Below, piece after piece: positions 5,163 through 62,697 of a DNA stretch of 64,000 bases; position 1 is the first letter of the stretch; each line of letters starts with the position of its first letter. The position numbers and the translations under genes were made by a program. Source of the DNA: a virus (taxonomy: Duplodnaviria; Caudoviricetes); IMG/VR virus record IMGVR_UViG_3300050821_004020, positions 9,302-73,301 of that record; one strand, written 5' to 3'. The notes under the pieces are model-generated. The model was not told the DNA's origin. It did no database searches and saw only the letters and a program-made list of their open reading frames with translations.

Positions 5163-5966
5163 TTACGATTTTCTCCACCTATTGCTCTGTCGAAGAATCT
5201 TCGCGGCGTATTCTTCCTGTCGTTTTTTATTTTCTTCTACAGGCAAAATAGCGAAGGCACCTTGTTTAGCTTCGAATTCTAAGAGCCTTTTGGCACCCCA
5301 CGTCTTTTCTTTTTTGAGTGCTTTTTGTGCTGCGTCTAGTCGAGACCAATCCTTCAAGAATATGAATCGCTTCTTTGGTATGTCGGGCGTAACTATGAGC
5401 CGCTCTCCGTATTTCGGTTTGACAATTTCGTACTTTGTGGTTCCAAACTCGTTAAAAAATCGTTTTCTGCTGACTCTTTTACCATCTAACCACCACGTTG
5501 AACCGTCTGGCTGTGCATCTTCTACTTGTAACCAATTTGCAGCTAGATAAGTATTTCCAGTATGGCCTACTTCGCGGTCGGCATAGGTGATAGCCGAATC
5601 AAAATTAGCAGTCTTGAAGAGCAGTCGCGTACTGTGAGCTAAAAGACTGCTCGTAGCCCATAGATGGCCGGGAATCCCGACCATGCGAACCAATTCAATC
5701 GGCTCAAAACCCGCTGCTCTCATTCTTTTTTGGACTGATATAGAACGAGGAACACCCCAAACAGTGCACCCCTCGTCGTGCCCGAAACATAATTGCGCCG
5801 TTCGTACCGCCCCCAAATAGTGGTGTTGAAGAAGTTCATTCGCTTTTTTCAAAGAAATAACTTCCACGCGGGGAGATTTTTGGAGCGAGAAGGTCGGAGT
5901 CGAACCGCCGTCACCGATTGGAATCGGTTGTTTTACCGTTAAACTATTCCCGCATAGCTCGCTCAT
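5163..5966 (-). CDS. Mom-like GNAT DNA-modification protein
   Basis: HHYLG, IELVRM, TSSLLA..., ITYAD..GHTGNTYLAANW match Mom-family motifs. Confidence 0.75.
   Translation of the reverse strand: MSELCGNSLTVKQPIPIGDGGSTPTFSLQKSPRVEVISLKKANELLQHHYLGAVRTAQLCFGHDEGCTVWGVPRSISVQKRMRAAGFEPIELVRMVGIPGHLWATSSLLAHSTRLLFKTANFDSAITYADREVGHTGNTYLAANWLQVEDAQPDGSTWWLDGKRVSRKRFFNEFGTTKYEIVKPKYGERLIVTPDIPKKRFIFLKDWSRLDAAQKALKKEKTWGAKRLLEFEAKQGAFAILPVEENKKRQEEYAAKILRQSNRWRKS
5881..5953 (-). ncRNA. tRNA-Gly-derived cloverleaf embedded in-frame in the 5' end of the Mom-like CDS
   Basis: GCGGGAA/TTCTCGC acceptor plus T-CCA, GTTT/AAAC D stem, ACCGA/TCGGT stem with 6-nt TTCCAA loop, TTCGACT T-loop. Confidence 0.8.
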
Positions 5967-7673: not shown

Positions 7674-7839
7674 TTATAATCCTGTGCGCCCACTTCTTGC
7701 GGGATGCTTCTGTTTCATTACAGTGTGGGAAGATGTTCCAGAATGCTACCCAAAAGAAATGCTGCTGAAGGTCCTTCTCGTATCGCAACCCGTTACCGCC
7801 AATAATTACGGCGGTCATTTTAGAGACTGTGCGGCTCAC
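7603..7839 (-). CDS. hypothetical protein
   Basis: ATGA overlap with the upstream gene stop. Confidence 0.55.
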   Translation of the reverse strand: MSRTVSKMTAVIIGGNGLRYEKDLQQHFFWVAFWNIFPHCNETEASRKKWAHRIINEKEKEDDTDSGTVVPLLQPKVL

Positions 7840-42964: not shown

Positions 42965-42972
42965 AAATAAGC

Positions 42973-43001
42973 TTGACAGGTTTTTGAAGTTGTGAGAGTA
43001 T
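42973..43001 (+). promoter_or_regulatory. promoter of the tRNA array
   Basis: TTGACA-17-GAGTAT with extended TG. Confidence 0.7.
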
Positions 43002-43067
43002 TCTTTTAAGCAGTGGACGGGACAGTTAGTCATACCCCCCGGCGGGTGGGTTAACCCGCCACCTTTC

Positions 43068-43141
43068 GTGAGCCTGATGTAGCGGGAGCATGGCAGCCTG
43101 TGACGCTGTCTGGCTGGGTTCGAATCCCAGGGCGCACCCCA
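43068..43141 (+). tRNA. tRNA-His(GTG)
   Basis: Cloverleaf, loop CTGTGAC, C73-CCA; -1 base is C. Confidence 0.85.
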
Positions 43142-43145
43142 ATTC

Positions 43146-43328
43146 TTGGCCTGGCCGGACGGCCAAAGAGTCACCATGTCAGAGGATGCTGACCGGTTGT
43201 TGCTATTAGTTGAAGCGGCAGAGAAGATAGATAATAATCTGAGCGTGCTTCCCGTAGCGATTCAACTGTTGTATGATGAGCAGTACAAGATGTTGATTCA
43301 AGAAATTGCCAAGAAGGCAAAGAATTAA
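43146..43328 (+). CDS. hypothetical protein
   Basis: ORF between tRNAs; likely start MSEDAD. Confidence 0.5.
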   Translation: MAWPDGQRVTMSEDADRLLLLVEAAEKIDNNLSVLPVAIQLLYDEQYKMLIQEIAKKAKN

Positions 43329-43335
43329 AGTTTTC

Positions 43336-43410
43336 GCCGCTCTAGCTCATTGGCAGAGCGCCGGCCTGAAAAACCGGGCGTACGTAGTTCGATTCTACGG
43401 TGCGGCGCCA
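43336..43410 (+). tRNA. tRNA-Phe(GAA)
   Basis: Cloverleaf, loop CTGAAAA, CCA. Confidence 0.9.
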
Positions 43411-43418
43411 AGATTAAT

Positions 43419-43505
43419 CGCCTGCTGATGGAATTGGCAGACATGCCGGATTCAAAATCCGGTGCCGTAAAACGCGTCAGGGTTCGAGTCCCTGGTGGGC
43501 GACCA
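43419..43505 (+). tRNA. tRNA-Leu(CAA)
   Basis: Loop TTCAAAA, long V-arm, CCA. Confidence 0.9.
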
Positions 43506-43513
43506 AAGTTTGA

Positions 43514-43639
43514 TCTTCCGATCACGGGCAGCCACCGTGTGAGACGTCCACTAAGGGCGAGGCTGGTTAAGTAAGGGGCCCCTGAACAATCAGAGGCTAG
43601 CCCTCGGGCGATCCAGCTGGGATGCGCTGGTGAGGAAGA
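43514..43639 (+). ncRNA. unassigned structured RNA between tRNAs
   Basis: TCTTCC-GA-TCA/TGA-GGAAGA closing stem with three internal arms. Confidence 0.5.
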
Positions 43640-43648
43640 CCGAATTTC

Positions 43649-43740
43649 TGTCGGGTACGACGGGATCGTGGCAGCGACTTATAATCGCTTCTGGCCCTGA
43701 TTAGGCTTGCTAGATGGTTCGATTCCATCCTCGACAACCA
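43649..43740 (+). tRNA. tRNA with TAT anticodon (nominal Ile) and long variable arm
   Basis: TGTCGGG/CTCGACA acceptor, AGCGA-CTTATAA-TCGCT, 23-nt V region, GATGG-TTCGATT-CCATC, ACCA. Confidence 0.85.
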
Positions 43741-43744
43741 GTTT

Positions 43745-43827
43745 GGGCTTGTGGCGAAACAGGCAAACGCGGCGGACTTAAAACCCGCTCCGAAAGGATG
43801 TCGGTTCGACCCCGACCTTGCCCACCA
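43745..43827 (+). tRNA. tRNA-Leu(TAA)
   Basis: Loop CTTAAAA, V-arm, CCA. Confidence 0.9.
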
Positions 43828-43837
43828 AAGTTTCAAT

Positions 43838-43914
43838 GCGCTGCGATTTCGAGCGGCAGAATACCTCCCTCTTAAGGAGGCTTGGTCTCAGTTCAAGTCT
43901 GAGGCGGCGCACCA
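43838..43914 (+). tRNA. tRNA-Lys(CTT)
   Basis: CCTCC-CTCTTAA-GGAGG, CCA. Confidence 0.85.
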
Positions 43915-43919
43915 AATTT

Positions 43920-43995
43920 GGGTTCGTAGCTTAATTGGCAGAGCCTCCGTCTTTTAAACGGAACTGTGTAGGATCATTGCCTACCGGACCCACCA
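43920..43995 (+). tRNA. tRNA-Lys(TTT)
   Basis: TCCGT-CTTTTAA-ACGGA; T-loop ATCATTG; CCA. Confidence 0.85.
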
Positions 43996-44004
43996 AATTT
44001 ATGT

Positions 44005-44094
44005 GGAAGTGCGGCGAAGACGGCGGGTCGTGCTTGTCTGTAAAACAAGATGCCCTTGCGGCACTAGCTGGTTCGAATCCAGCCGCTTCCACCA
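44005..44094 (+). tRNA. tRNA-Tyr(GTA)
   Basis: CTTGT-CTGTAAA-ACAAG, V-arm, CCA. Confidence 0.9.
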
Positions 44095-44098
44095 TTTT

Positions 44099-44173
44099 AG
44101 TCTACTGGCGCAACAGCAGCGCAGTCTCTTGATAGGAGAAAGGTTCCTAGTGCAAATCTAGGGTGGACTACCA
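44099..44173 (+). tRNA. tRNA-Ile(GAT)
   Basis: Loop TTGATAG; T-loop TGCAAAT; CCA. Confidence 0.8.
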
Positions 44174-44185
44174 ATTTTACACCGT

Positions 44186-44261
44186 GGGGCTGTAGCTCAT
44201 TCAGGAGAGCGCATCGCTTGCACCGATGAGGCGTCCGGAGCAAAGCCGGATAGCTCCACCA
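44186..44261 (+). tRNA. tRNA-Ala(TGC)
   Basis: CATCG-CTTGCAC-CGATG; G3:U70; T-loop AGCAAAG; CCA. Confidence 0.9.
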
Positions 44262-44269
44262 ATTTCTGT

Positions 44270-44345
44270 TCCCGACTAGCAAACTGGTCGTATGCATCTC
44301 GCTTACACCGAGACAGGGAGTGTTCGATTCACTCGTTGGGAACCA
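44270..44345 (+). tRNA. tRNA-Val(TAC)
   Basis: TCTCG-CTTACAC-CGAGA, CCA. Confidence 0.9.
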
Positions 44346-44346
44346 C

Positions 44347-44422
44347 GGGGTGTTCGTATATCGGAACATTACGCGGCGCTACGAACGCCGAAAGCAGAGT
44401 CCAATTCTCTGACGCCCCTCCA
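44347..44422 (+). tRNA. tRNA-Arg(ACG)
   Basis: CGGCG-CTACGAA-CGCCG; T-loop TCCAATT; CCA. Confidence 0.85.
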
Positions 44423-44490
44423 ATTTTCGTGTGTCACTGTAAACTATCGGCCTGTAGGTGAGCATAGGCGTCCGAGCACGAATACATTTT

Positions 44491-44565
44491 GGCCCTGTCG
44501 TTCAGCGCACAGGACTCTGGTCTTCGAAACCAGCAACGTCGGTTGGAATCCGACTGGGGCCTCCA
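44491..44565 (+). tRNA. tRNA-Arg(TCG)
   Basis: CTGGT-CTTCGAA-ACCAG; T-loop TTGGAAT; CCA. Confidence 0.85.
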
Positions 44566-44615
44566 AATTTACCGGGATTACAACCGGGTAGCGAACGTTT
44601 TCGGACGTAAACCGA

Positions 44616-45041
44616 ATGGCTGGTGCTTTGCCGTTAGCCGCATCCTTTAAAAAGGAGCGACTGATGATTAAAGAAACACAACTGGGTATGCCATTTGGAA
44701 CGGCGTGCCATCAACTAAGAAAGGAAATTCTTTTTGAGTTGGTAAGAGAAGTAAAAAGAAATTTTTGTTTTAGGTGCGGCAAACAAATTGAGCTTAGTCG
44801 AGATTTTTCGATTGATCATAAAGAGCCTTGGTTACACAGTTTTGAACCAAAAGTTTTGTTTTTCTCTTTGACGAATATTGCCTTTAGCCACAGGCTATGC
44901 AATACGAAGGCCCGTCGAATTAGAAGAAAGTATTCGCCCAAAGAAGCGATACGAGTTGAGCGAGAGCAGAAAGCCGCATACATGAGGAAAATGTATACGA
45001 CCGAGCGCCGCCAATTAAAGTATCGAGCTACTGGGCACTGA
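44616..45041 (+). CDS. HNH endonuclease within the tRNA array
   Basis: CFRCG..SIDHKEPW..FSHRLCN. Confidence 0.8.
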   Translation: MAGALPLAASFKKERLMIKETQLGMPFGTACHQLRKEILFELVREVKRNFCFRCGKQIELSRDFSIDHKEPWLHSFEPKVLFFSLTNIAFSHRLCNTKARRIRRKYSPKEAIRVEREQKAAYMRKMYTTERRQLKYRATGH

Positions 45042-45048
45042 ATTCAGT

Positions 45049-45124
45049 TTCGCTCTGGTCTAACTGGCAGGACACTTCACTGTTAATGAAGAGGGTCTCC
45101 GTTCGAATCGGAGGGGCGGAGCCA
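45049..45124 (+). tRNA. tRNA-Asn(GTT)
   Basis: CTTCA-CTGTTAA-TGAAG, GCCA. Confidence 0.9.
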
Positions 45125-45131
45125 ATTTCGA

Positions 45132-45205
45132 GCAGTGATGATCTAGTGGTATGATGACGCACTTGTAATGCGTACGCCGGGGTCCGATTCCCTGTCGCTG
45201 CTCCA
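45132..45205 (+). tRNA. tRNA-Thr(TGT)
   Basis: ACGCA-CTTGTAA-TGCGT, CCA. Confidence 0.9.
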
Positions 45206-45206
45206 A

Positions 45207-45280
45207 GCACTGTTGATCTAGTGGTATGATGCCGCTTTCGTAAAGCGGACGCCGGGGTCCGATTCCCTGACGGTGCTCCA
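45207..45280 (+). tRNA. tRNA-Thr(CGT)
   Basis: CCGCT-TTCGTAA-AGCGG, CCA. Confidence 0.9.
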
Positions 45281-45285
45281 GTTTT

Positions 45286-45362
45286 GAGGTGGTCGCGTAG
45301 CGGCCTATCGCACTCCACTGTCTATGGAGTTTTCGTGGGTTCGAATCCCATCCGCCTCGCCA
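45286..45362 (+). tRNA. tRNA-Asp(GTC)
   Basis: CTCCA-CTGTCTA-TGGAG, GCCA. Confidence 0.9.
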
Positions 45363-45370
45363 TTTTTCGA

Positions 45371-45444
45371 GCACTCGTAGTTTAGTGGTAGAACACGCCC
45401 TTGGTAAGGGCGGGGTTAGGGTCCGATTCCCTGCAGGTGCTCCA
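45371..45444 (+). tRNA. tRNA-Thr(GGT)
   Basis: CGCCC-TTGGTAA-GGGCG, CCA. Confidence 0.9.
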
Positions 45445-45446
45445 GT

Positions 45447-45520
45447 GCCCATGTAGTCTAGTGGTAGAACGCAGCCCTCTCACGGCTGTAGCGTCGGTTC
45501 GATTCCGGCCACGGGTACCA
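45447..45520 (+). tRNA. tRNA-Glu(CTC)
   Basis: CAGCC-CTCTCAC-GGCTG, CCA. Confidence 0.9.
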
Positions 45521-45527
45521 ATTCTGT

Positions 45528-45603
45528 GGCGATGTCATCTAGTGGCCTAGGATGCTTCCCTTTCAAGGAAGTCACGCGGGTTCGAGTCCCGCCGACGCTA
45601 CCA
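45528..45603 (+). tRNA. tRNA-Glu(TTC)
   Basis: CTTCC-CTTTCAA-GGAAG, CCA. Confidence 0.9.
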
Positions 45604-45754
45604 TATTCTGAAAGTTGTCTGTTGGATACCCCACCGTACGGTGCAGTACATTAACATCGGTGTTAAAAAGACTTGCAAAGGCCAAAATGGATTGGTATAA
45701 GGATTCAGCAGTTGAGCAGTTAAATCCCATCCCTACCAAAGAGGAGAGGCCAAC

Positions 45755-45970
45755 GTGAAGAATCCGGTCCAGCAAGCAGGTATGAAAGAGTTGAAGCTGT
45801 CCTTTGATGCTCGTATTGATGATTTGCATTTGCAGGTCGGAGATTTCGTCAAAGTAGCGGATCAAGTATATAAATTTGTTGGTCGTGAATTGGGCGCTAG
45901 GGATCAATTCGGGAAACTCATTCCAGGTTTGAACCATAAGTATTACGATGTTCTCGAGCCAATCAATTAA
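45755..45970 (+). CDS. hypothetical protein
   Basis: SD GAGGAG; ORF between tRNAs. Confidence 0.6.
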   Translation: MKNPVQQAGMKELKLSFDARIDDLHLQVGDFVKVADQVYKFVGRELGARDQFGKLIPGLNHKYYDVLEPIN

Positions 45971-45979
45971 GTTCATTAT

Positions 45980-46064
45980 GCCCCGTTGGCGAAACTGGGA
46001 AACGCGCAGAGCTTAGACCTCTGTGCCTTCGGGCTTGGAGGTTCGACTCCTCTATGGGGCACCA
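45980..46064 (+). tRNA. tRNA-Leu(TAG)
   Basis: CAGAG-CTTAGAC-CTCTG, V-arm, CCA. Confidence 0.9.
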
Positions 46065-46087
46065 TTTTGTACGTACATCGGTTGGGC

Positions 46088-46432
46088 GTGCCGCAATCAC
46101 GCCCGACCACTCTATTGCGGAGAGAAAGGGTGAGAGAAGGGAAGGCTTATGAGCGTGTTCGTGGCGCTCACAAACGATTGGTTGTGAACCGTTGGAAAAG
46201 AAGAAAGGGCTGCGTTGATTGCGGCTACAAAGCCAATTACGACGCGCTAGAGTTAGATCACCTCTTCGGAAAGAAAGGCAATTATCGTACTGTTGCTTCT
46301 CTGATGTACGCGAGCTGGAGAGTGATCAAAGAAGAGATTGTAAAATGCGAAGTTGTTTGTGCGAACTGCCATGCAATTCGAACTCGGTTAAGAGAGAAAA
46401 TTTCATTGCGGGCACGGCTGGTGCCGGGCTAA
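46088..46432 (+). CDS. HNH endonuclease within the tRNA array
   Basis: GCVDCGY..LELDH..KCEVVCANCH. Confidence 0.85.
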   Translation: MPQSRPTTLLRRERVREGKAYERVRGAHKRLVVNRWKRRKGCVDCGYKANYDALELDHLFGKKGNYRTVASLMYASWRVIKEEIVKCEVVCANCHAIRTRLREKISLRARLVPG

Positions 46433-46479
46433 GCCTCATAAACTTTGGCGTCATGATTCGATTTCATGGCCCGCAACCA
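46407..46479 (+). tRNA. atypical tRNA with CAT anticodon (Met or Ile2)
   Basis: TGCGGGC/GCCCGCA acceptor, ACCA, loop CTCATAA, 4-nt D-loop, extended anticodon stem. Confidence 0.7.
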
Positions 46480-46493
46480 TTTTTAGGAGTCGC

Positions 46494-46694
46494 ATGGATC
46501 TTAAGTCGATACCATATTCAATAGCAAAGGTTGCCCGTGATCAAATGGCAGCCGGCACAAAGGCGGCAAAAGGTGGGGATGATGATAAAGCCGCGCCAGA
46601 GCCTGCTAAGAAACAGGAAAATCCTGCGGATAAGTCAACTGATGCTGTTAGTGGTCTAGTTAAGACTGTCGCAAGCCATTTTATGCCGAGTTAA
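46494..46694 (+). CDS. hypothetical protein
   Basis: SD AGGAG. Confidence 0.6.
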   Translation: MDLKSIPYSIAKVARDQMAAGTKAAKGGDDDKAAPEPAKKQENPADKSTDAVSGLVKTVASHFMPS

Positions 46695-46738
46695 AACTCT
46701 AGGGCCCGTTTCCAGGCCCCACAGTTAGGCTAACTCCG

Positions 46739-47179
46739 TTACTTTCGTTTTCGGTCGAGGACGCTGGCAGTTTCCTTGTCAACTACGTACAGATGGCCGG
46801 TCTTGCCGTTTTCACCATTCTGTCCGACGATCAAGCTGAATTTTTCAGTCAGCCCGAGCTTGTGAAACTGATAGCGAATTCTTGCTGTCATTTGTCCGGC
46901 GTCCAACACATTGTTCCACGGGTCAACGGTTGGGATGATGTCGATGTCCACGGCTTCAAAACTGCCGAGACCGGCATTGAGCTTTTCCATTAATGCGGAC
47001 CAGAAGGGGAGCCCCAAAATGAAAGCTTCCCGTCCAGCGCGAACTGGCGACGGAACATCTGTCCTCTTGACGATTTTGATTGCTGGTCCCCGGTCAGTTG
47101 TGTAATCCGGGCCGTATGTTGCGTTGATTTTTGTTGCAGTCGCTGACATTCTTTTCTCCTTTTGTGTTGCGGTTGCCAT
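46739..47179 (-). CDS. hypothetical protein antisense to the tRNA array
   Basis: 146-aa ORF with SD (AAGGAAG or AAGGAG) in a tRNA-free gap. Confidence 0.7.
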   Translation of the reverse strand: MATATQKEKRMSATATKINATYGPDYTTDRGPAIKIVKRTDVPSPVRAGREAFILGLPFWSALMEKLNAGLGSFEAVDIDIIPTVDPWNNVLDAGQMTARIRYQFHKLGLTEKFSLIVGQNGENGKTGHLYVVDKETASVLDRKRK

Positions 47180-47460
47180 TTTGGTTTCTTCCTTTCAGTG
47201 GCTGAGTTGATCTAGTTTATCTGAGTGTTAGAGGAAGCCCTGGGCTTTTTAGACTGCACTCTGGATTAAACGTCCACGGTACTAATTCTGGAGTTTAACC
47301 CAAAGCGGTTCAATACTCCAAACACTGTACGTCGGTTCATAGTACCTCTAGTCCTTAGTTTCTGGCTTTGTACGCTTTCGTACCGGCCATGTGTGTACCG
47401 TACAGAGTATTAGATGCCAAATCTGTGCTAAACAGCACACTTTTGGAATAAAGTTTTCGA

Positions 47461-47534
47461 GCGATGTTGGTATAGTGGTAGAACGACACCTTGCCAAGGT
47501 GTAGGCGCGGTTTCGATTACCGCACGTCGCTCCA
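47461..47534 (+). tRNA. tRNA-Gly(GCC)
   Basis: ACACC-TTGCCAA-GGTGT, TCCA. Confidence 0.9.
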
Positions 47535-47536
47535 GT

Positions 47537-47650
47537 TTGTCCGGTAGCTCAGATGGTTAGAGCGCGATCAGCAAGCCCGCTCATTCAGGTCATTCCTGAA
47601 TTGCAAGGCCCAAGTGGTCGAGGTCACGGGTTCGAATCCCGTCCGGCAAA
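47537..47650 (+). ncRNA. tRNA-like RNA with a 44-nt insertion replacing the anticodon loop, no CCA
   Basis: Canonical D arm TAGCTCAGATGGTTAGAGC, CGATCA/TGGTCG stem, AGGTC, ACGGG-TTCGAAT-CCCGT. Confidence 0.8.
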
Positions 47651-47662
47651 ATTCGGTGGTCT

Positions 47663-47920
47663 ATGACATACGAAGCCCTCGTGATCACGTTGGGGTTTGT
47701 AGTGGACTTGATCGCATTGTATTTTTTGGTCGGTATCTGGCGTGATGACAGGCTCATGCGGATAGCGGCAGAAGAATCCCTTAAGGCTCAGCTTGAGTAT
47801 TTGGGCTTGCGCCGTAAATGGTACGAGCAGCGCTCCGCAGCCAAGAGGAAGAGCGATGTGGGAAGACCAGGAACAGAAGCAGCTGGAACACAGGATGGCG
47901 ATAGTGCGAACGCTGTGTAA
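47663..47920 (+). CDS. small membrane protein
   Basis: N-terminal TM; ORF track. Confidence 0.6.
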   Translation: MTYEALVITLGFVVDLIALYFLVGIWRDDRLMRIAAEESLKAQLEYLGLRRKWYEQRSAAKRKSDVGRPGTEAAGTQDGDSANAV

Positions 47921-47984
47921 CATTGCCGGCGTCATTATAAGCCTCTTCTACGTTCTCTGGCAAATGAAGTTGATACGATTTTAA

Positions 47985-48058
47985 GCGGTGTTGATGTAAC
48001 GGTAGCATCGCAGTTTTCCAAACTGCTCGTCTCGGTTCGAATCCGTGACGCCGCTCCA
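47985..48058 (+). tRNA. tRNA-Gly(TCC)
   Basis: GCAGT-TTTCCAA-ACTGC, TCCA. Confidence 0.9.
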
Positions 48059-48082
48059 GTTTAATCCTCGAAGAGAGGTACG

Positions 48083-48388
48083 ATGCACGAAAGAATAGAG
48101 CGGCTTAGAAATCACGCACATTTTTTGGTCGGATATCGTCAAGAATTAGAGGAGGTACTTATGGCATTCGCAGACAGCATTGCAAAGTTGCAAGCGGACG
48201 TAGCAACACTTATCGCAGAGAACGGTCCCGCAGCGGTAACGGCGGCAGTAACGGCAGCCGTGGCAGCCAAGGACGCGTCAGACGCAGCGGCAGTTGACGC
48301 AGTGGACGCAACGGTAGCAGCAGCTCTGCCGGCAGCACCAGCCCCGGCGGCTCCAGCAGCACCGGCCCCAGCAACACCAGCGGCGTAA
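48083..48388 (+). CDS. Ala/Pro-rich protein (probable start 48161)
   Basis: SD GAGGAGG before MAFADS. Confidence 0.7.
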   Translation: MHERIERLRNHAHFLVGYRQELEEVLMAFADSIAKLQADVATLIAENGPAAVTAAVTAAVAAKDASDAAAVDAVDATVAAALPAAPAPAAPAAPAPATPAA

Positions 48389-48443
48389 GGTTTTTCTAGA
48401 ATACCCGGAGATCCGTGGCGGGTTATCCACGGTCAAAGTTTAT

Positions 48444-48518
48444 ATGAGAGTCGTCTAGAGGCTAGGACGGCGGACTCCAAACCCGCCTACGGTGGTTCGA
48501 CTCCATCCTCTCATGCCA
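48444..48518 (+). tRNA. tRNA-Trp(CCA)
   Basis: Loop CTCCAAA, GCCA. Confidence 0.9.
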
Positions 48519-48620
48519 ATTTAGTGGGGGGCTTATGAAGACTCATAAGTTTTTCACAGCGGTTCTGTATTTTGGTTTGACGATGATGTTGCTCGTGAGC
48601 CGGTATAAGCGATTTAAATT

Positions 48621-48917
48621 ATGACACTACCCTCTTGGTTGAGCTGGCTGACCGACAATTCCTGGATGAACAATCCAGACGTGCTTGCGCAGTTCGGTCA
48701 TGCGGGGATCCCTTATGGCGCCCTGTTGACGATGGATAAGTTTCATTCGCATTTGTTTTACCCAATCGGTCTAGGCGTAATAGCGTACGCCGCAGTTAAA
48801 GAATTTTGGTATGACGCGAACTATGAAACGCCCAAGCAGAGCTTCAAGGACAATATGACGGATTTCAGTTTTTATTGCCTTGGAGTCGGCCTGGCGTTCC
48901 TAGTTCACAATCTCTAA
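48621..48917 (+). CDS. membrane protein
   Basis: Hydrophobic segments; ORF track. Confidence 0.65.
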   Translation: MTLPSWLSWLTDNSWMNNPDVLAQFGHAGIPYGALLTMDKFHSHLFYPIGLGVIAYAAVKEFWYDANYETPKQSFKDNMTDFSFYCLGVGLAFLVHNL

Positions 48918-48925
48918 GTTTCAGT

Positions 48926-49000
48926 GGATCTATCTTTCAATGGATAGGAAGTCCGCCTTCTAAGCGGATAATCCAGGTTCGAGTCCTGGTGGGTCTACCA
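48926..49000 (+). tRNA. tRNA-Arg(TCT)
   Basis: TCCGC-CTTCTAA-GCGGA, CCA. Confidence 0.9.
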
Positions 49001-49004
49001 ATTT

Positions 49005-49080
49005 GGCTCTGTCGTTCAAATGGACAGGACGCGAATTTCCTAAATTCGTCATCGCGGTTCGACTCCGCGTGGGGCCTCCA
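49005..49080 (+). tRNA. tRNA-Arg(CCT)
   Basis: CGAAT-TTCCTAA-ATTCG, CCA. Confidence 0.9.
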
Positions 49081-49126
49081 GTTCTAGCTTAACGCCGAGT
49101 AGGGGACCAATTGGGCGGCGCGTGAC

Positions 49127-49510
49127 TTGCATGGTGCTCTACCACAGAGTGCAAGTGGGTTCAGCCCGATGCACATTCGTGTTCCGCGTTGGCAGTTGTT
49201 GGCTATTCCTTCGTTGGCGTTCGCAGTGGGCTTCACGATGAACGCGTTCGTTATGGCCATGAATAACGGTCAGATGCCTGTGTTGTTCCCGGGCGGAGAC
49301 CAGTCTGGGTATACTCAAGACACCATTCATTGCGCGATGACGATGGCAACGCACTTTAGATTTCTCGCGGATTGGATCAACATTCGCGGAGTTGGTATCG
49401 CCAGTCCCGGCGATTTCTTGGAGTGGTTCTCGGATCAAACAACTTGGCCTGGAATTTGGGCTTGGTTCGCGCTGATAGTCAATGACCACATCAAAAAGGA
49501 AAGGCAATGA
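49127..49510 (+). CDS. DUF5317-like membrane protein
   Basis: MN..VMAMNNGQMPV..FLADWI..ASPGDFL. Confidence 0.7.
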   Translation: MHGALPQSASGFSPMHIRVPRWQLLAIPSLAFAVGFTMNAFVMAMNNGQMPVLFPGGDQSGYTQDTIHCAMTMATHFRFLADWINIRGVGIASPGDFLEWFSDQTTWPGIWAWFALIVNDHIKKERQ

Positions 49511-49947
49511 AAGGTGTAATTTTAGCTGGACTGCTCGCCTTGGTTATGGTAGGCTGTAACATCGTTACGAAGTCAAACGACTACGGCGTATACAATATTG
49601 GGGTTTGTGGTGATGAAGCATTCATGGCGTCGAACGTAGACGTTGAAAAGGACACCTTCACCATTCTCGCGTCAGAGATGGCGCCAGGTCAAGCAAAGGC
49701 GCAAAGCAATAAGCCGATAGTATTTAAGTTTTCCAAGGTCGTAGACGGTAAGCGCGTTTACATTCTGGTCATAAATGGCCATGAAGACGAGATCGCGGTA
49801 ACCGCGCAGAACGGCGTAGTATCAGGAACGTTCTCCGTGAACAATAAAGAGCTGGCGGTCATTCATGGCGCCAAGGGTTCTTTGGATAAGATTGATGAAG
49901 TTGGTCAAGCAGAGGCGCAGTCTTGCTACGACCGAAACAATAGGTAA
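49507..49947 (+). CDS. lipoprotein
   Basis: Signal peptide with lipobox MVGC. Confidence 0.75.
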   Translation: MKGVILAGLLALVMVGCNIVTKSNDYGVYNIGVCGDEAFMASNVDVEKDTFTILASEMAPGQAKAQSNKPIVFKFSKVVDGKRVYILVINGHEDEIAVTAQNGVVSGTFSVNNKELAVIHGAKGSLDKIDEVGQAEAQSCYDRNNR

Positions 49948-49952
49948 GGATT

Positions 49953-50230
49953 TAGGTGGACTGGATCATCGCGGGCGCAAGCCTGAGGAACTTCAGGACA
50001 TCACTATACACAGCACCGTGGAAGTTGCGGGCCGGGTAACCGGACGGGTAAGGCCATCTTGCGGAGAATAGCCAGTCTAATCTACGCACATTCAAGGGTG
50101 GGCACTCCATGCTGGATGCAATCTCAAATAGGGCTGGAGCGCGTATAGCGTTATGATAGCCGGGTTGAGAGCTTAGACGGATGATGGTCGGGTCGCAAGG
50201 CTTACTAAATCCTGGGTATAGGTTCACCTA
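49953..50230 (+). ncRNA. rnpB: RNase P RNA, compact type-A-like, P18 absent and S-domain reduced
   Basis: P1, P2, P3, P4 with bulged U, P5-P9, P15-P17 and P19 all pair; GAGGAA (CR-I), CAA..AAATAG, GGU and ACTAAATCCTGGGTATA (CR-V) sit in register. Confidence 0.85.
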
Positions 50231-50240
50231 ATAATTTTAA

Positions 50241-50326
50241 GGAACGGTGCCGAAACGGTAGCCGGACTGGTTTGCTAAACCAGCGAGTGAAAGCTCGTGG
50301 AGGTTCGAATCCTCCTCGTTCCGCCA
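50241..50326 (+). tRNA. tRNA-Ser(GCT)
   Basis: CTGGT-TTGCTAA-ACCAG, V-arm, GCCA. Confidence 0.9.
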
Positions 50327-50387
50327 TTTGAATTTACGGGAACCCCGAGATAGCTACCCGGGGCCGTGAACCCGGTTGCAAACGGGC

Positions 50388-50465
50388 GACGATGTAGCTC
50401 AGTGGCAGAGCACAACCACTTAAGTGTGATTGAGGCCGTCGGTTCGAATCCGACTATCGTCTACA
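50388..50465 (+). ncRNA. tRNA-like RNA with aberrant 20-nt anticodon arm, no CCA
   Basis: GACGATG/TATCGTC acceptor, canonical D and T arms, 3' end TACA. Confidence 0.7.
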
Positions 50466-50471
50466 AATTTT

Positions 50472-50558
50472 GGATTAATGCGGTCCATGGGGGCCAGCGG
50501 TCTTGAAAACCGTGCCGGGTGTAAGCCCGAGTGGGTTCGATTCCTACTTAATCCGCCA
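50472..50558 (+). tRNA. tRNA-Ser(TGA)
   Basis: GCGGT-CTTGAAA-ACCGT, V-arm, GCCA. Confidence 0.85.
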
Positions 50559-50595
50559 GCCGGTCTCTTACGGGTAAAGCCGGGAGCCGGCGCCA
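50559..50595 (+). ncRNA. minihelix ending in G-CCA
   Basis: GCCGG-T-CTCT/GGAG-CCGGC plus CGG/CCG, then GCCA. Confidence 0.5.
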
Positions 50596-50600
50596 AGTTT

Positions 50601-50676
50601 CTCTGAGTGGCCAAGTGTTAAAGGCAGAGATCTGCAAAATCTCAAATCGTGGGTTAAAATCCCACCTCGGAGTCCA
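50601..50676 (+). tRNA. tRNA-Cys(GCA)
   Basis: GAGAT-CTGCAAA-ATCTC, U73-CCA. Confidence 0.9.
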
Positions 50677-50677
50677 T

Positions 50678-50753
50678 TGAGATGTCGTCCAACCCGGCAG
50701 GACAACGGTCTTTGAAACCGTGAATTCTGGTTCGAATCCAGACGCCTCATCCA
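50678..50753 (+). tRNA. tRNA-Gln(TTG)
   Basis: ACGGT-CTTTGAA-ACCGT, CCA. Confidence 0.9.
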
Positions 50754-50760
50754 AATTTAT

Positions 50761-50835
50761 TGCGATGTCATTCAATCGGTAGGATGACGCTCTCTGAAAG
50801 CGTTCATAGTGGTTCGAGTCCACTCGCCGCAACCA
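50761..50835 (+). tRNA. tRNA-Gln(CTG)
   Basis: ACGCT-CTCTGAA-AGCGT, CCA. Confidence 0.9.
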
Positions 50836-50842
50836 ATTTAAT

Positions 50843-50921
50843 CGGAAAATAGGGGAGCCTGGCTTATCCCGCTCGCTTTGGAAGCGAGAGCACGTTGGTT
50901 CGAATCCAACTTTTCCGACCA
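50843..50921 (+). tRNA. tRNA-Pro(TGG)
   Basis: CTCGC-TTTGGAA-GCGAG, CCA. Confidence 0.9.
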
Positions 50922-50922
50922 T

Positions 50923-51001
50923 CGAGAAATAGGAGAGTCTGGCTTATTCCGCCCGGTTCGGAACCGGGAGCACGTTGGTTCAAATCCAACTTTCTCGACC
51001 A
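50923..51001 (+). tRNA. tRNA-Pro(CGG)
   Basis: CCCGG-TTCGGAA-CCGGG, CCA. Confidence 0.9.
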
Positions 51002-51018
51002 TTCTTGAACGCAGTACC

Positions 51019-51054
51019 GCCCCACCGGCGTATGTCTGGTGGGGCTTTCTTTTT
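51019..51054 (+). terminator. intrinsic terminator ending the tRNA array
   Basis: GCCCCACCGG-loop-CTGGTGGGGC followed by TTTCTTTTT. Confidence 0.8.
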
Positions 51055-51069
51055 AGGAGCAACAAGAAC

Positions 51070-51462
51070 ATGGCAACTCCAACAGCTTTGATTCAGCAGA
51101 AGACTGGCGCAGTTGTGGCCGGCGCATCCGTCCCGCAAGCCTGGCCAAACGCGTCCACTAACGCGCAGAATTTAGATTTGATTCAGATTATAGATATCGG
51201 CGGCAGCATCGTGCTCAACGTTGATTATCTTGGCACAGTACATAATCCGGCGGTCAATCCAACTACGAGCGGAGGCGGCGGTACAGGTCAAGTCCGCATC
51301 GCTCAGTATCTCACTAGGTTAGCATCAGGCTCAACTACAGCAGCCTTCTTTGCAGACGCATTTGAAAATCTCGCCCAGCTCGATATTCTTCAAGTAATAT
51401 CCCCTACCGGTGGTAACGTAACTTATTCCCTCAATTATTTAGGTGTGGCTAGCGGCTCATAA
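51070..51462 (+). CDS. hypothetical (virion?) protein with internal duplication
   Basis: SD AGGAG; QNLDLIQII..YLG repeated as AQLDILQVI..YLG. Confidence 0.7.
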   Translation: MATPTALIQQKTGAVVAGASVPQAWPNASTNAQNLDLIQIIDIGGSIVLNVDYLGTVHNPAVNPTTSGGGGTGQVRIAQYLTRLASGSTTAAFFADAFENLAQLDILQVISPTGGNVTYSLNYLGVASGS

Positions 51463-58356: not shown

Positions 58357-60573
58357 ATGGCATTAACCGGGCAAGCAAAGAAGGACAACGAATTCGTTAG
58401 ACCAAGAGCCGTGAAACAGACCGAGTTCTGGGGCTCAATATTTAAGTCAGAGGAATCCGAGTTAGCAGGCCGGGATGATATTGATCCTGAAGTTCTGATA
58501 ACCATTCTTAATCCAAATAAGAGATTCAGGTCGGAAGCTCTGTCCACCGAGGATTTGTGGTTTAAGTATATTGGCATTGAGAAGGAGTCTGAGGAAGAAA
58601 TAGAACGCCGTGGTCGGGGGAAGAAGAGCAAAGAAACTAGGCTCGAGCCTATCAGGGCTCGCAGGCTCCCTGGGAGATTCAGCGACGACGGCTACTTAAC
58701 TTTCACTAATTGGCTATATGCTAGGGATCAGGCTCGTAAAGATTTGCTATGGTTATCTACTAGCGTACTGGGCGAGACTAGAGTTGATCCGTTTGTTCAT
58801 CAGATAATTTGTGACCAGTTTATTCAGCCGAACTTTGACGGCGTGTATCATGGCGGTTACGCCCTGGAAGAAGTTCAGTCCGCGTTGGATAGTCAAAGTC
58901 GTGTTCCCCGCCGCTGGAATGAAGAGCATAAGAATTATGTAACAGCATCCCAGGAAGATCTCGAGAACGAAGAGAATCGTGCTCGAATGATGATCTTGTT
59001 GGACGCTCGTGGGTTTTATAAGTCAACCCTGAATCGCGCCCACGCAATTCAAATGATATTGAATTGCCCTGATATCACCATGATGATTATGACCGCTGCC
59101 ACGTCTTTGGCGACGGCTTTCGTTCAGATCATCAAGATGAAGTTTTATCTTCCGCGTGGCGGCGAGCCTAAACCGCTGCAGTTGCTATTCCCGGAGTACG
59201 TACTTCGCGGAGTGGACGGCACGTCAGCTGAGCCTTTGCTATGTCCGGCCAGAATCCATGAACGCCCGTATCCCACACTTTGGGCGAACTCAGTTGGTTC
59301 CGTATTGGCTGGTTGGCACTGTGACTACGGCAAATTCGATGATGCCATAGAAATTAAGAATTCGAATACTGATACGCTGCGTAAGCAGCTGCGTAATGAA
59401 ATTGACAACATCATGAACCTAATTGACCCCTGGGGCAAGGTGGACATGATTGGTACGCGGTACTTCCCTGATGATTACTACGGTACCAGGAAGACCAGGT
59501 CAGATGACGATCCAGAAGATTACACGAAGATTAAGTATTTCGTGCGCTCAGCGTGGACGCCCAAGAGTCAAGCATTTGCTGAGATCGAAAAGAAAGACAT
59601 TAACAAGTTGACCTTAGATATGGTCACGCTTGCGTTCCCTCATCAAAAGGGAGATCCCGAGAGGACGTTTGCGTACCTAAAGGGAATTCTTCGCAATAAC
59701 GAACAAACGTTCCGATGCCAGCAGCTGAATCAGCCCGTCTGGGGCGATAGTCTGCCATCCTTCAAGATTGAAGATTTGAAGGCTCCGCATCGCCAGATGA
59801 ACATAGATTACGCTCGCCGGCTGCCCGGCGAAGTAAAGATTCTATGGGATCCGGCCAAGACAGCTAATAAGAATTCAGACTACACAGCCGGCGCGGCATT
59901 CAAGATCTTCCAGAAGGAAGATAAACGTATCGCCGCTATTCTTTTGGAAGTGGTCTACGATAAGTGGACTCAAACCGAGATTGTCCACCAGATGATCGAA
60001 CTAGATCATCGCTGGCAGCTGTGGAGTACGGCTAGGATTGTCAACCGAGCGGAAGATACCGGTGGTCTTGATTTGATGAAGATCAAGGTCATTCAAGACG
60101 CGGTTACCAGATACGGAACACCCCCGCAGTTTTATTGGATTCCCCCGACTAATGAAACGAATGCAAAGCGTAATCGTATCAAGGGTCTCGAGATCCTACT
60201 TCAGGAAGATAGACTATTCTTCGCTGACGGCGCATGGCTACATAGCGAAGACGGCGTATTCGCCCAGCTAGTAGCATACAAAGGTGAGAAAAGTTCTAGA
60301 ACTAGAAAGGATGATATCCCAGATGCAATGTCTTGGATTACAGCCTTTCTACCGAACAGCGTTCAACTGACAGAAGAAGAGAAGGCCTTGCAGGATATTG
60401 CAAAAGAGGCCGCTCAAGCACAGACGCTTTTAAGAGCGCAACACGAGCGTATTTTTGGTCGGGATGTTCCAGGGAATCCCTTTTTAGCTTCGGTGGAAGA
60501 TGACGGACAACCGTCTTCTCCATACGGCGACATCTCAAAGCGGCTGTTTGGCGGTAATGGAATGAGGGCCTAG
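58357..60573 (+). CDS. terminase large subunit
   Basis: Walker A variant ARGFYKST, HCDYGKFDD, IGTRY, nuclease WDPA..SDYTA, KDDIPDA. Confidence 0.9.
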   Translation: MALTGQAKKDNEFVRPRAVKQTEFWGSIFKSEESELAGRDDIDPEVLITILNPNKRFRSEALSTEDLWFKYIGIEKESEEEIERRGRGKKSKETRLEPIRARRLPGRFSDDGYLTFTNWLYARDQARKDLLWLSTSVLGETRVDPFVHQIICDQFIQPNFDGVYHGGYALEEVQSALDSQSRVPRRWNEEHKNYVTASQEDLENEENRARMMILLDARGFYKSTLNRAHAIQMILNCPDITMMIMTAATSLATAFVQIIKMKFYLPRGGEPKPLQLLFPEYVLRGVDGTSAEPLLCPARIHERPYPTLWANSVGSVLAGWHCDYGKFDDAIEIKNSNTDTLRKQLRNEIDNIMNLIDPWGKVDMIGTRYFPDDYYGTRKTRSDDDPEDYTKIKYFVRSAWTPKSQAFAEIEKKDINKLTLDMVTLAFPHQKGDPERTFAYLKGILRNNEQTFRCQQLNQPVWGDSLPSFKIEDLKAPHRQMNIDYARRLPGEVKILWDPAKTANKNSDYTAGAAFKIFQKEDKRIAAILLEVVYDKWTQTEIVHQMIELDHRWQLWSTARIVNRAEDTGGLDLMKIKVIQDAVTRYGTPPQFYWIPPTNETNAKRNRIKGLEILLQEDRLFFADGAWLHSEDGVFAQLVAYKGEKSSRTRKDDIPDAMSWITAFLPNSVQLTEEEKALQDIAKEAAQAQTLLRAQHERIFGRDVPGNPFLASVEDDGQPSSPYGDISKRLFGGNGMRA

Positions 60574-60579
60574 CAAATA

Positions 60580-62697
60580 ATGGAGCAATTATCGCAGCAG
60601 GCAGCCGAAGAGCTGATGAACCGAGAGACTATCCCTGCTGCGGAGATAACGTCTAAAAGCATGACGATTGACCCGGAGACGGGCGCGTACATGTTTGATG
60701 ATGAGTCCGCGTTGAAGTTAGTCATTGACGACGCATCTCAAGCGGATAACTACGCGAATATCAATCAGTGGGCTAGCTATTGGACTCAGTCTGACGTCAT
60801 TCTGCAGAGCCCTACACAGGCGTCCGCGTTTGACGGCGGCAACGTCGCTCAGGCGAACGTCCCAAAGTTCACACTTTCAAATCACCTTAGCGCAATCGTG
60901 CCGAAGGTTATGGAAGGCCTCTTCTATGAGGATCCTCCGTTCATCCTTCGTCCGCGCCCGGGTGTAAAGCCCGAAGTTACTCGTGCCAAGACCGCGTTGT
61001 TTTCAGCGCAGCTCTGGGATATGAAGTTTGAAGAAGAGGTGGAGCGCGGCATTGACCAGATGGCGCTTCTAGGTACTGGGATCTTTAAGTGGGGCTATTT
61101 AGAGTACACCCACAAAGAGAAAAAGTATCGTAGAAAGGCAAGCCCGGTTCAGTTAGATGCGATTGTTCCGACTGATCCAATCAATACTCCAGACTCAGAT
61201 GACTTTGAGCTGTACCTAGACTCCGTAAAGGTTTCTAGGCCATGGATTAAGTACTGCGATATTCGTACGGTTCTAGTAGAGCCCGGCTGCCGTGTTGGAG
61301 ATATCCGTAACGCTAAGTGGGTTATCTATAGAGACTACGTAACGTATGATGATTTAAATGCGATGCGCGAGACTCCGGGATACAGCATTCCGGACGAAGC
61401 CACATTGAAGGCTTGGTTCCTAAACGATCCTAAGTCAGGTCAAGACAACATTACGATGACGATCCCGGAAGGCATGCGCGGATACCTGCAGCATGCGATC
61501 CCGAGAAACTTTAAGAGTTCGGCGGATCCTCTTCAGACTCCTATGGAGCTTCTTGAGAGATGGGACAGAGATAAGGTCATCGTTGTTCTATCATTCAACG
61601 GCGTAAACATTTTGATCCGCAACCAAGCCAACCCTTACGGGAAGGTTCCGTTCCTTTCAGCCAACTGGCGCAATCTTCCTGACAGCTTCTATGGCCAGGG
61701 CCTGGGCCAGCTAATTGGTTCCGAGCAGATTGTAGAGCAAGGTGTAACCAACCTTGCGCTTGATCTTTTGGCGTACGGACTACAACCGACAGCTGTGCGC
61801 AAGAAGGGCTTCAACGTCCCAACACAGATGACCCGCTGGAAGCAGGGCGGCATCATTGACGTGGATGATGACGTTGAGAAAGCGTTTAAATTTTTGACTA
61901 TGCCTCCAGTCCCAGGAGAGGCATGGCAGTTTATTCAGCAGGCTCAGCAAGCCGCAGCATCAACCTCTGGCGCAAATGAGATTGTAGGACAGGGCGGAAC
62001 AACGGGCGGCGGACGCGGTACCGGGATGCGATCCGGTACTGGCGCGGCTGCAGTTATCCAAGCTAACGCAAGTAGATTGGACGGGCCGACATCCAGATTG
62101 GTGCGCCAGGTCTTTGAACCGTGGCTGTACCAGATGGACGAACTGAACAATCAGCTGCTTCCTACATCCGTTCTTAGACGTGTACTTGGAGAAGAGCTAG
62201 GGAACATCTACCTTGGCGATCACATTGAATTCAGGAACGCGAAGTTTGAATACGAAGTTCTAGCGGGAGCCCACCTAGGCGCCAAGAAAGAAATGGCGCA
62301 AGCGTTACCAGTGATCATCCAGCTTTTGAATTCTCCGACTTTCACCAAGAACGTTAACGATGCTCATTGGCAGTTTGACGCCGTGGCCATCTTCAAGGCC
62401 TTCACGGACGCAGCCGGCTGGAAGTTCAGCCAGGAATTCCTTCGTCCTATGACGCAGCAAGAAGCGCAGCGTTACGAGGCTAACTCTCCATCTGCTATGC
62501 AGGCTAAGCAATTGCAAGCGCAGCAAGCATTGGAGACCCAGAAGTTCCAGCAGCAAAGAAAGCTCCAGGATGAAGAACAGCTTGGTAAGGCCGGGGCAGA
62601 AGTTCTCCGTGCATCTACAGAGCATTCTTTGAACCAGGAGTTAGAGGGCGAGCCAAGCAGCAATGCACAGAGTTTCGGATCAGAAGTTTCAGTCTAA
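60580..62697 (+). CDS. portal protein
   Basis: 705 aa directly after terminase; FYGQGLG, SGANE, P22/T7-like portal features. Confidence 0.85.
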   Translation: MEQLSQQAAEELMNRETIPAAEITSKSMTIDPETGAYMFDDESALKLVIDDASQADNYANINQWASYWTQSDVILQSPTQASAFDGGNVAQANVPKFTLSNHLSAIVPKVMEGLFYEDPPFILRPRPGVKPEVTRAKTALFSAQLWDMKFEEEVERGIDQMALLGTGIFKWGYLEYTHKEKKYRRKASPVQLDAIVPTDPINTPDSDDFELYLDSVKVSRPWIKYCDIRTVLVEPGCRVGDIRNAKWVIYRDYVTYDDLNAMRETPGYSIPDEATLKAWFLNDPKSGQDNITMTIPEGMRGYLQHAIPRNFKSSADPLQTPMELLERWDRDKVIVVLSFNGVNILIRNQANPYGKVPFLSANWRNLPDSFYGQGLGQLIGSEQIVEQGVTNLALDLLAYGLQPTAVRKKGFNVPTQMTRWKQGGIIDVDDDVEKAFKFLTMPPVPGEAWQFIQQAQQAAASTSGANEIVGQGGTTGGGRGTGMRSGTGAAAVIQANASRLDGPTSRLVRQVFEPWLYQMDELNNQLLPTSVLRRVLGEELGNIYLGDHIEFRNAKFEYEVLAGAHLGAKKEMAQALPVIIQLLNSPTFTKNVNDAHWQFDAVAIFKAFTDAAGWKFSQEFLRPMTQQEAQRYEANSPSAMQAKQLQAQQALETQKFQQQRKLQDEEQLGKAGAEVLRASTEHSLNQELEGEPSSNAQSFGSEVSV

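Follow-up and report, generated by a model that had tools for sequence, protein, structure and literature searches.

RNase P RNA is the ribozyme that trims new tRNAs, and it has been described as a cellular and organellar ribozyme. Here we examine a candidate gene for such an RNA at positions 49953-50230 (plus strand) of a 64,000-nucleotide stretch of phage DNA, hereafter the window (positions 9,302 to 73,301 of the IMG/VR virus record IMGVR_UViG_3300050821_004020; Duplodnaviria, Caudoviricetes). Judged by its sequence, the locus, which lies inside a tRNA operon, probably encodes a functional phage version of the RNase P catalytic RNA subunit, derived by reduction from the RNA of bacterial class A. 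It was first noticed in a reading of the DNA letters by a model (the original prediction), which knew of no characterised phage RNase P RNA. A full-text literature search that included an RNase P review (PMC11143913), the Bcheck survey of RNase P genes (PMC2996960) and PMC6582537 likewise found no report of a virus-encoded RNase P RNA.

Among described systems, the bacterial class A RNA, represented by Escherichia coli M1 RNA (377 nt) and Rfam family RF00010, shares with the window RNA a full-length model match, helices P1-P12 and P15-P17, and the P4 and P6 pseudoknots. Also shared are GAGGAA in J3/4, the bulged U69, A248, G292-G293-U294 in L15, AGAnGnAUG in J18/2 and an equivalent of A118. 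The window RNA differs in its length of 278 nt, in the lack of P13, P14 and P18, in a short P3 and P12 and in an added P19. In its P4, a U.G pair replaces G68-C358 of E. coli, and both sides of three other pairs are changed; J2/4 reads ACUAAA, and the A232-A234 platform is reduced. In addition, the gene of the window RNA belongs to a phage, lies in a tRNA operon and has no cognate rnpA. For comparison, a structure of the Thermotoga maritima class A holoenzyme with tRNA is cited as PDB 3Q1R in PMC11143913.

Reduced RNase P RNAs are known from other settings. According to the reports, the "type T" RNAs of Thermoproteaceae (Pyrobaculum) and engineered RNAs consisting of the C-domain only have a reduced specificity domain and retain catalysis (PMC3579882; PMC5839562; PMC11143913), and both C-domain-only and trimmed RNAs cleave pre-tRNA (PMC11143913; PMC5839562). 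As described there, these RNAs are archaeal or synthetic, whereas the window RNA is viral, keeps a specificity domain and shows a milder reduction (loss of P13, P14 and P18). Plastid and cyanelle RNase P RNAs (PMC4264200) are also derived from class A, reside in reduced genomes and depend on proteins encoded elsewhere; however, they are organellar and vertically inherited, several are functionally defective without protein, and their genes lie outside mobile elements and tRNA operons. GOLLD RNA, found in prophages and horizontally transferred tRNA clusters (PMC6582537), resembles the window RNA in being a large structured RNA gene among phage-derived tRNAs and beside HNH endonucleases. Its sequence and fold are unrelated and its biochemical function is unknown, whereas the window RNA has the fold of a known ribozyme.

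Homology and anatomy of the RNA

A cmscan search of 49850-50340, run in E-value mode with permissive filters, matched RF00010 (RNaseP_bact_a) at 49953-50234 (plus strand) with 95.7 bits and an E-value of 5.1e-30, spanning model positions 1-367 of 367. This covariance-model comparison, which the original prediction had put forward, demonstrates homology along the full model. RF00010 was the top-scoring member of clan CL00002 at the locus, and weaker overlapping matches from the clan were discarded. The gene measures 278 nt from P1 to P1, and the model match extends four nucleotides beyond it. A search of the entire window at the Rfam gathering threshold reported tRNAs only; it passed over the RNase P RNA because the score lies below the curated RF00010 cut-off of 100 bits. 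The identity originally proposed, a phage-encoded RNase P RNA inside a tRNA operon, is supported by four independent lines of evidence: the full-length RF00010 match, covariation in P4 and P6, a single copy in five related phage records and contigs from RNA libraries.

The catalytic domain is retained, comprising P1-P5, P15-P17, the P4 and P6 pseudoknots, the bulged U, the A248 equivalent and the L15 GGU. With RNA position 1 set at window position 49953, and all elements on the plus strand, P1 is formed by RNA positions 1-10/269-278 (49953-62/50221-30), P2 by 12-18/231-237 and P3, closed by a GCAA loop, by 20-24/29-33. P4 pairs 38-40 and 42-46 with 258-265. Its 5' strand at 49990-49998 reads ACU(U)CAGGA, in which the bulged U41 (49993) corresponds to E. 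coli U69, and the preceding position, 49992, is U where E. coli has G68. The 3' strand at 50210-50217 is UCCUGGGU, with the same letters in the RNA contigs that reach 50215; J2/4 (ACUAAA, 50204-50209) lies directly 5' of it. P5 (47-50/163-166) is CAUC/GAUG. P6 (53-57/191-195) pairs UAUAC at 50005-50009 with GUAUA at 50143-50147 and forms a pseudoknot with the P17 loop. P15 (170-173/215-218; UCUC/GAGA), P16 (180-183/206-209) and P17 (186-190/196-200) follow, and a P19 hairpin, GGUC-GCAA-GGCU, is located between P2 and P4 (239-242/247-250; 50191-50202).

The specificity domain is trimmed to P7-P12, with P13, P14 and P18 lost. It occupies 104 nt (50011-50114) and consists of P7 (59-63/158-162; CAGCA/UGCUG), P8 (64-68/74-78), P9 with a GUAA loop (80-83/88-91), P10 (95-96/155-156), P11 (99-106/145-154) and P12, an imperfect hairpin (108-111/133-136). 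In the model alignment, 90 positions of the P12-P14 region are represented by 44, leaving out P13 and P14, and P3 is short. A further gap, of 24 model positions against none in the RNA, corresponds to P18, whose absence the original prediction had recognised; the stretch of about 66 nt that it had noted between P9 and the 3' strand of P7 is 65 nt and is made up of P10, P11 and the imperfect P12.

Landmark residues were mapped by running E. coli rnpB through the same RF00010 model and comparing model coordinates. In this way U41 corresponds to U69, A168 to A248, G211-G212-U213 to G292-G293-U294 and A92 (50044) to A118. The AA of J5/15 at 50120-50121 occupies model positions 224-225 (E. coli A248 and A249), and the GGU at 50163-50165, originally assigned to L15, maps to model positions 270-272. 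In described enzymes, the equivalent of U69 is involved in metal binding and acceptor-stem contact, A248 stacks on the G+1/C+72 pair of the tRNA, the L15 GGU pairs with the tRNA 3' RCCA end, and A118 belongs to the T-loop-binding site (PMC11143913).

According to the model alignment or to relatives, P1, P3, P4 with its bulged U, P5, P7, P8, P9, P15, P16, P17 and P19 lie where they had been placed at first reading, and the sequence agrees. Two helices required correction. The 3' strand of P2, read originally as ATCATC/GATGAT, was off by 3 nt, the homologous register in relatives being GAUCAUC/GAUGGUC. For P6, the helix itself stood (the 6-nt complement is CUAUAC/GUAUAG), whereas the exact pairing CTATA/TATAG gave way to UAUAC/GUAUA in the P17 loop.

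Conservation, phage lineages and RNA libraries

The viral homologues that the original prediction had suggested looking for were found in IMG/VR. A gapped pattern on the P4 5' strand retrieved 30 contigs, about 24 of them genuine, and in the genuine ones three variable P4 positions were always met by a complementary 3' strand. The nearest RNA homologue, L095, is ~79% identical to the window RNA. Six matches were rejected as chance matches in coding sequence (L080 from a 20-mer scan; L085, L097, L100, L104 and L105 from the gapped-pattern scan). Among 120 matches to the P4 pattern listed for bacterial genomes, none was genuine; all were due to chance.

The window RNA and 16 other long forms were aligned with MAFFT (17 sequences), with the helix map specified from the window copy. 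Helix partners were paired in 80.8% of cells, compared with 32-41% when the partners were slid, and the covariation score was 0.333 compared with 0.05-0.08; none of 500 shuffles reached the observed values. P4 was paired in all 17 sequences at all 8 pairs (100%), three of which were compensating with two to four pair types; the original prediction had already remarked on compensatory changes in P4 and P5. P6 was paired in 90.6% of cells and compensating, with variants UAGAC/GUCUA, UCAAC/GUUGA and UGGUC/GACCA. Because Rfam's nested model excludes both P4 and P6, their covariation is independent of the RF00010 match. Compensating changes were also present in P7 (90% of cells paired), P9 (100%), P10-11 (94.6%), P15 (100%) and P16 (95.6%), and P8 was 100% paired and invariant. 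UGCAA in J5/15 and CGGGU in L15 were invariant in the 17 sequences. P18 was absent from 15 of them, and the P11 strands enclose nothing but a P12 hairpin, which is variable. The place of P19 is taken by a variable hairpin that covaries within the window's subgroup. P1-P3 were poorly aligned in the set of 17 and were inspected by eye on a subgroup alignment; they hold in four relatives whose 5' ends were captured, and these relatives fix the register of P2. Together, these patterns demonstrate purifying selection on the predicted RNase P fold in a lineage of ~100-kb soil phages.

In whole-record searches, all five related phage records (5/5) had a single copy each, with RF00010 scores of 104 bits (L095), 102 bits (L098), 93.6, 92.5 and 91.6 bits; the first two are above the Rfam cut-off and the other three within 91.6-93.6. 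Both related records that are at least 97% complete carry a single copy. P4 and P8 show extra compensations in the copy of the closest phage, L338.

The contig is a phage of the same lineage as the complete genomes carrying the RNA. PHROG matches in the window include a large terminase (58357-60573), a portal protein (60580-62697), DNA polymerase I, a helicase and a primase. Portal identity is 62-66% to two IMG/VR genomes, one of 98.5 kb (97% complete) and one of 105 kb (complete, with direct terminal repeats), and 84% to a third record. The contig probably derives from a soil metagenome. With phage genes and phage relatives found, the host-chromosome origin that the original prediction had named as a possible refutation does not apply. 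The best GenBank phage match to the window polymerase had only 37% identity.

A second scan of IMG/VR was anchored on the J5/15-P15-L15 core only and was blind to P4; its classes leave out 57 matches without an upstream GAGGAA. It yielded 22 loci with an xUUC form of P4. These are compact, with a median GAGGAA-to-GCAA distance of 140 nt, and at least five tRNAs lie within 3 kb of 19 of the 22. A further 20 loci have the canonical AGUCC and match the E. coli RNA in size (median 174 nt). Most of the latter have no nearby tRNAs, and those outside tRNA clusters probably represent host sequences binned as viral. A U in P4 at E. coli position 68 is the mark of a phage lineage residing in tRNA arrays. 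Five AGUC-type P4 cores were observed in clusters of 12-17 tRNAs: L240 (4205-4257, on a 463-kb contig), L260 (7302-7354, on a 455-kb contig), L262, L266 and L305. Such AGUC-type cores in tRNA clusters of very large phage contigs may represent a second, independent lineage of phage RNase P RNAs.

Mini forms of the RNA (L081, L083, L086 and L092) share with the window copy the P4 motif GAGGAA-N-UUC-N-GG with a complementary 3' strand, and a location in or near phage tRNA clusters. They have almost no specificity domain and measure 143-144 nt from P4 to P4, whereas the window copy measures 226 nt and keeps P7-P12. One of them, L081, scores only 40 bits on RF00010. In blastn searches of GenBank phages, neither the window RNA nor L098 had a match, and L083 matched only the 735-kb uncultured phage records LR756501.1 and LR756503.1; no cultured phage with an RNase P RNA gene was among the matches. 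The match to L083 in these records (181390-181507; 69.5% identity over 118 nt) is unannotated there.

RNA libraries also contain the RNA, as a discrete piece. Contigs identical to the window were present in three soil metatranscriptome runs, each from a different study, and all lie inside the RNase P RNA gene: 49962-50185 in run X3 (word depth 34), 49967-50215 in run X4 (29.8) and 50038-50215 in run X5 (15.5). Flanking pieces had a depth of 2.7-4.2 in one run and were absent in the two others. Coverage gaps within 49000-51100 in RNA or DNA runs were not counted as absence. These contigs are supportive, not decisive. Runs X4 and X5 also held contigs of other phage RNase P RNAs that partly match 50016-50056, with unmatched ends AGGAAGTTCCGGTCACATCTCAACATCGTG, which suggests that several members of the phage family are transcribed in soil.

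The tRNA operon, the protein partner and possible functions

The RNA lies in an array of 33 tRNA genes at 43068-51001 (plus strand), detected with ARAGORN and Rfam and often separated by spacers of 1-10 nt. The original prediction had all 34 tRNAs encoding CCA, and the count was revised to 32 of 33 plus-strand tRNAs. The only array member without an encoded CCA is a tRNA-like gene at 50388-50462 (plus strand; Rfam tRNA 51.6 bits), which ends in ...TCGTC-T-ACA and for which ARAGORN gave a 4-base "anticodon", taag. tRNA-Ser(GCU) (50241-50326, plus strand) begins 10 nt past P1. The order of RNA and then tRNA-Ser is found in five relatives, in which the tRNA begins 18-23 nt past the P4 3' strand, and the order tRNA-Arg, RNase P RNA, tRNA-Ser is kept in the window's subgroup. 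The upstream tRNA lies directly against the RNA in L095 and L110, with about 5 nt between its end and P1. The window has two small open reading frames (ORFs) inserted between tRNA-Arg(CCU) and the RNA (49127-49947, plus strand): a DUF5317-like one at 49127-49510 (Pfam) and, judging by its pI and N-terminus, an acidic lipoprotein-like one at 49507-49947.

No promoter-like site was found directly 5' of the RNase P RNA. A candidate promoter of the operon, with a TTGACA -35 element, is located at 42972-43005 (plus strand), and an intrinsic terminator (10-bp stem with 8 G-C pairs and a T run) at 51019-51045, 18 nt past the last tRNA. A 21-nt core with TTGACA, CTTGACAGGTTTTTGAAGTTG, occurs identically at 42972-42992 (plus strand) and 10284-10264 (minus strand), one copy being 5' of the tRNA operon and the other 5' of a 735-aa gene at 7836-10043, which suggests that the operon and this gene may be co-regulated. 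Pfam did not find a TROVE domain in the 735-aa protein.

Consistent with an early observation that the window has no RnpA, PF00825 was not found in 137 window ORFs of 80-240 aa. The same search of five related records, two of them near-complete, was also negative; in a control search the family was present in 10 of 14 reference genomes. Neither did a conserved basic protein accompany the RNA among relatives. With no phage RnpA, we infer that the RNA uses the host protein. Two ORFs considered as protein partners were rejected. The upstream 146-aa ORF is acidic, lipoprotein-like and not consistently linked to the RNA, and a basic 141-aa ORF is an HNH-type endonuclease. The latter, at 44616-45041 (plus strand), has a CxxC motif, and two or three copies with 43-78% identity occur in the tRNA arrays of relatives (L099, L001, L089 and L102). 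Two window ORFs match Pfam HNH, and the 141-aa ORF probably encodes a homing endonuclease that is spreading within tRNA clusters.

In the mechanism that we propose, the RNase P RNA would be transcribed within an operon of ~8 kb, from the promoter near 42974 to the terminator at 51019-51045. Given that the upstream tRNA abuts the RNA in relatives and that tRNA-Ser begins 10 nt past P1, processing of the neighbouring tRNAs, including cleavage by RNase P, would set the ends of the RNA, and its 3' end would be freed when RNase P cuts that tRNA-Ser at its 5' end. The phage RNA, which we expect to be catalytically active, would then bind host RnpA and remove the 5' leaders of 33 phage pre-tRNAs, with the L15 GGU anchoring on the CCA ends that 32 of the 33 encode. 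The outcome would be a tRNA-maturation capacity of the phage's own during infection. More tentatively, the lineage with U.G at P4 68/358 could be a self-contained tRNA-maturation module, a reading that we hold at somewhat less than even confidence. Such a module would excise itself from the operon through RNase P action and capture host RnpA, and with its trimmed specificity domain and GGU it would prefer CCA-encoding pre-tRNAs, making tRNA supply independent of host rnpB. The 278-nt form would be an intermediate toward the mini forms of ~200 nt, in that case the smallest bacterial-type RNase P RNAs to occur naturally.

Several observations weigh against a functional ribozyme. The score of the window copy is slightly below the Rfam cut-off, which is operational and not structural. 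A single-sequence minimum-free-energy fold did not recover the RNase P fold and was no better than shuffles (z -1.29), a comparison that is uninformative because the ribozyme is pseudoknotted. Within the core, U replaces G68, a G in both the RF00010 consensus and E. coli, throughout the phage lineage. The ACUAAA in J2/4 is peculiar to the window copy, the phage family and E. coli having ACAGAA; the RNA contigs read ACUAAA as well. The T-loop-binding platform (A118/A180/A233) is altered in sequence, with the A232-A234 run of E. coli cut to a single A in GGCACUCC and the A118 equivalent kept at 50044. P18 is absent, and its deletion from the E. coli RNA lowered the rate >3000-fold (PMC11143913). 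Finally, the RNA-library evidence consists of assembled contigs, which carry no strand, ends or level, and DNA carry-over is possible.

These features could be read in other ways. The RNA might serve as a protein sponge or competitor that keeps the RnpA-binding face (P2-P4, J18/2 and J2/4) with weak or dead catalysis, titrating host RnpA or competing for pre-tRNAs and thereby shutting down or redirecting host tRNA maturation. The loss of P18, P13 and P14, the core changes (U in place of G68 and, in the window copy, ACUAAA in J2/4) and the abundance of the RNA in RNA libraries would fit this role, as would the lack of a phage RnpA, so that any activity must engage the host protein. However, the bulged U, the A248 equivalent, the L15 GGU, P6 and P15-P17, all needless for a pure sponge, are invariant or covarying, and the RNA is located in arrays of CCA-encoding tRNAs that themselves require RNase P; we therefore consider a sponge unlikely. 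Slightly less probable again is an active ribozyme whose main substrates are not canonical tRNAs and instead are small mRNAs of the operon, CCA-less tRNA-like elements, or host or phage mRNAs cleaved under guidance, the last being the retargeting that the original prediction had raised. Small ORFs and tRNA-like elements are indeed interspersed in the operon, and a trimmed specificity domain would loosen dependence on the tRNA elbow: with its protein, E. coli RNA without specificity-domain residues 94-204 still cleaved pre-4.5S RNA (PMC11143913). Yet no guide-like complementarity or specific non-tRNA target was found, and the simplest substrates are adjacent, namely 33 pre-tRNAs with encoded CCA matching the conserved GGU. 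In addition, P7-P12 are kept in the window copy with covariation, and therefore this RNA falls outside the class without a specificity domain.

A decaying, non-functional relic of a host rnpB acquired by the phage would account for the core substitutions, the sub-threshold Rfam score and a length below that of cellular class A RNAs. Such a relic is very improbable, given the single copy in 5/5 related phage records despite a portal identity of only 62-84%, helix changes that are compensatory and not random, the presence in RNA libraries, and the absence of genuine matches among the 120 listed for bacteria. Least credible of all, to the point of being nearly dismissed, is that the locus encodes a 91-aa protein on the opposite strand and resembles an RNA only secondarily. 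A frame of 91 codons at 49952-50227 (minus strand) exactly overlies the RNA and stays open in several homologues as well as in the window. We judge it spurious: in L095, the nearest relative, it is interrupted and reaches no more than 59 codons, and it is likewise interrupted in L107 and L103; the lengths of most indels are not divisible by three; no Pfam family was among those listed for the ORF set that holds this frame; and the RNA model matches with an E-value of 5e-30. The RNA strand has 88 G and 62 C (56% purine), and with G exceeding C its complement is slightly poor in the purines that stop codons contain. The frame is likely to be annotated by gene callers as a hypothetical protein, which would hide the RNA gene.

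If the window RNA is an active RNase P ribozyme, large phages would supply not only tRNAs but also a ribozyme for processing, and viral takeover of translation would reach further. The phage forms would then be class A ribozymes minimised by nature to different degrees, the longest with 278 nt and P7-P12 and the shortest with ~200 nt, allowing one to ask which parts serve catalysis, protein binding and substrate choice, and the tolerated change of G68 in P4 would bear on models of the metal-binding core. The gene is also a marker that annotation pipelines currently miss, because it scores too low for the Rfam cut-off and is overlain by an antisense ORF.

Other genes of the array and the window

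A tRNA-Ile with the rare UAU anticodon is located at 43649-43740 (plus strand). It is unusually long (92 nt) and below the Rfam tRNA gathering threshold, and could contain an intron or insertion. Outside the array, a gene of the Mom family of DNA modification is present at 5163-5966 (minus strand; Pfam PF25680, E 4e-9). A weak tRNA-like match at 5881-5953 (minus strand; Rfam tRNA 30.5 bits, ARAGORN anticodon undetermined) lies inside its 5' end. According to Pfam, small ORFs of the window include Cpn10/GroES (E 2.9e-25), a ribosomal protein L7/L12 C-terminal domain (E 3.6e-5), MazG, dNMP kinase, SprT-like proteins and endonuclease VII.

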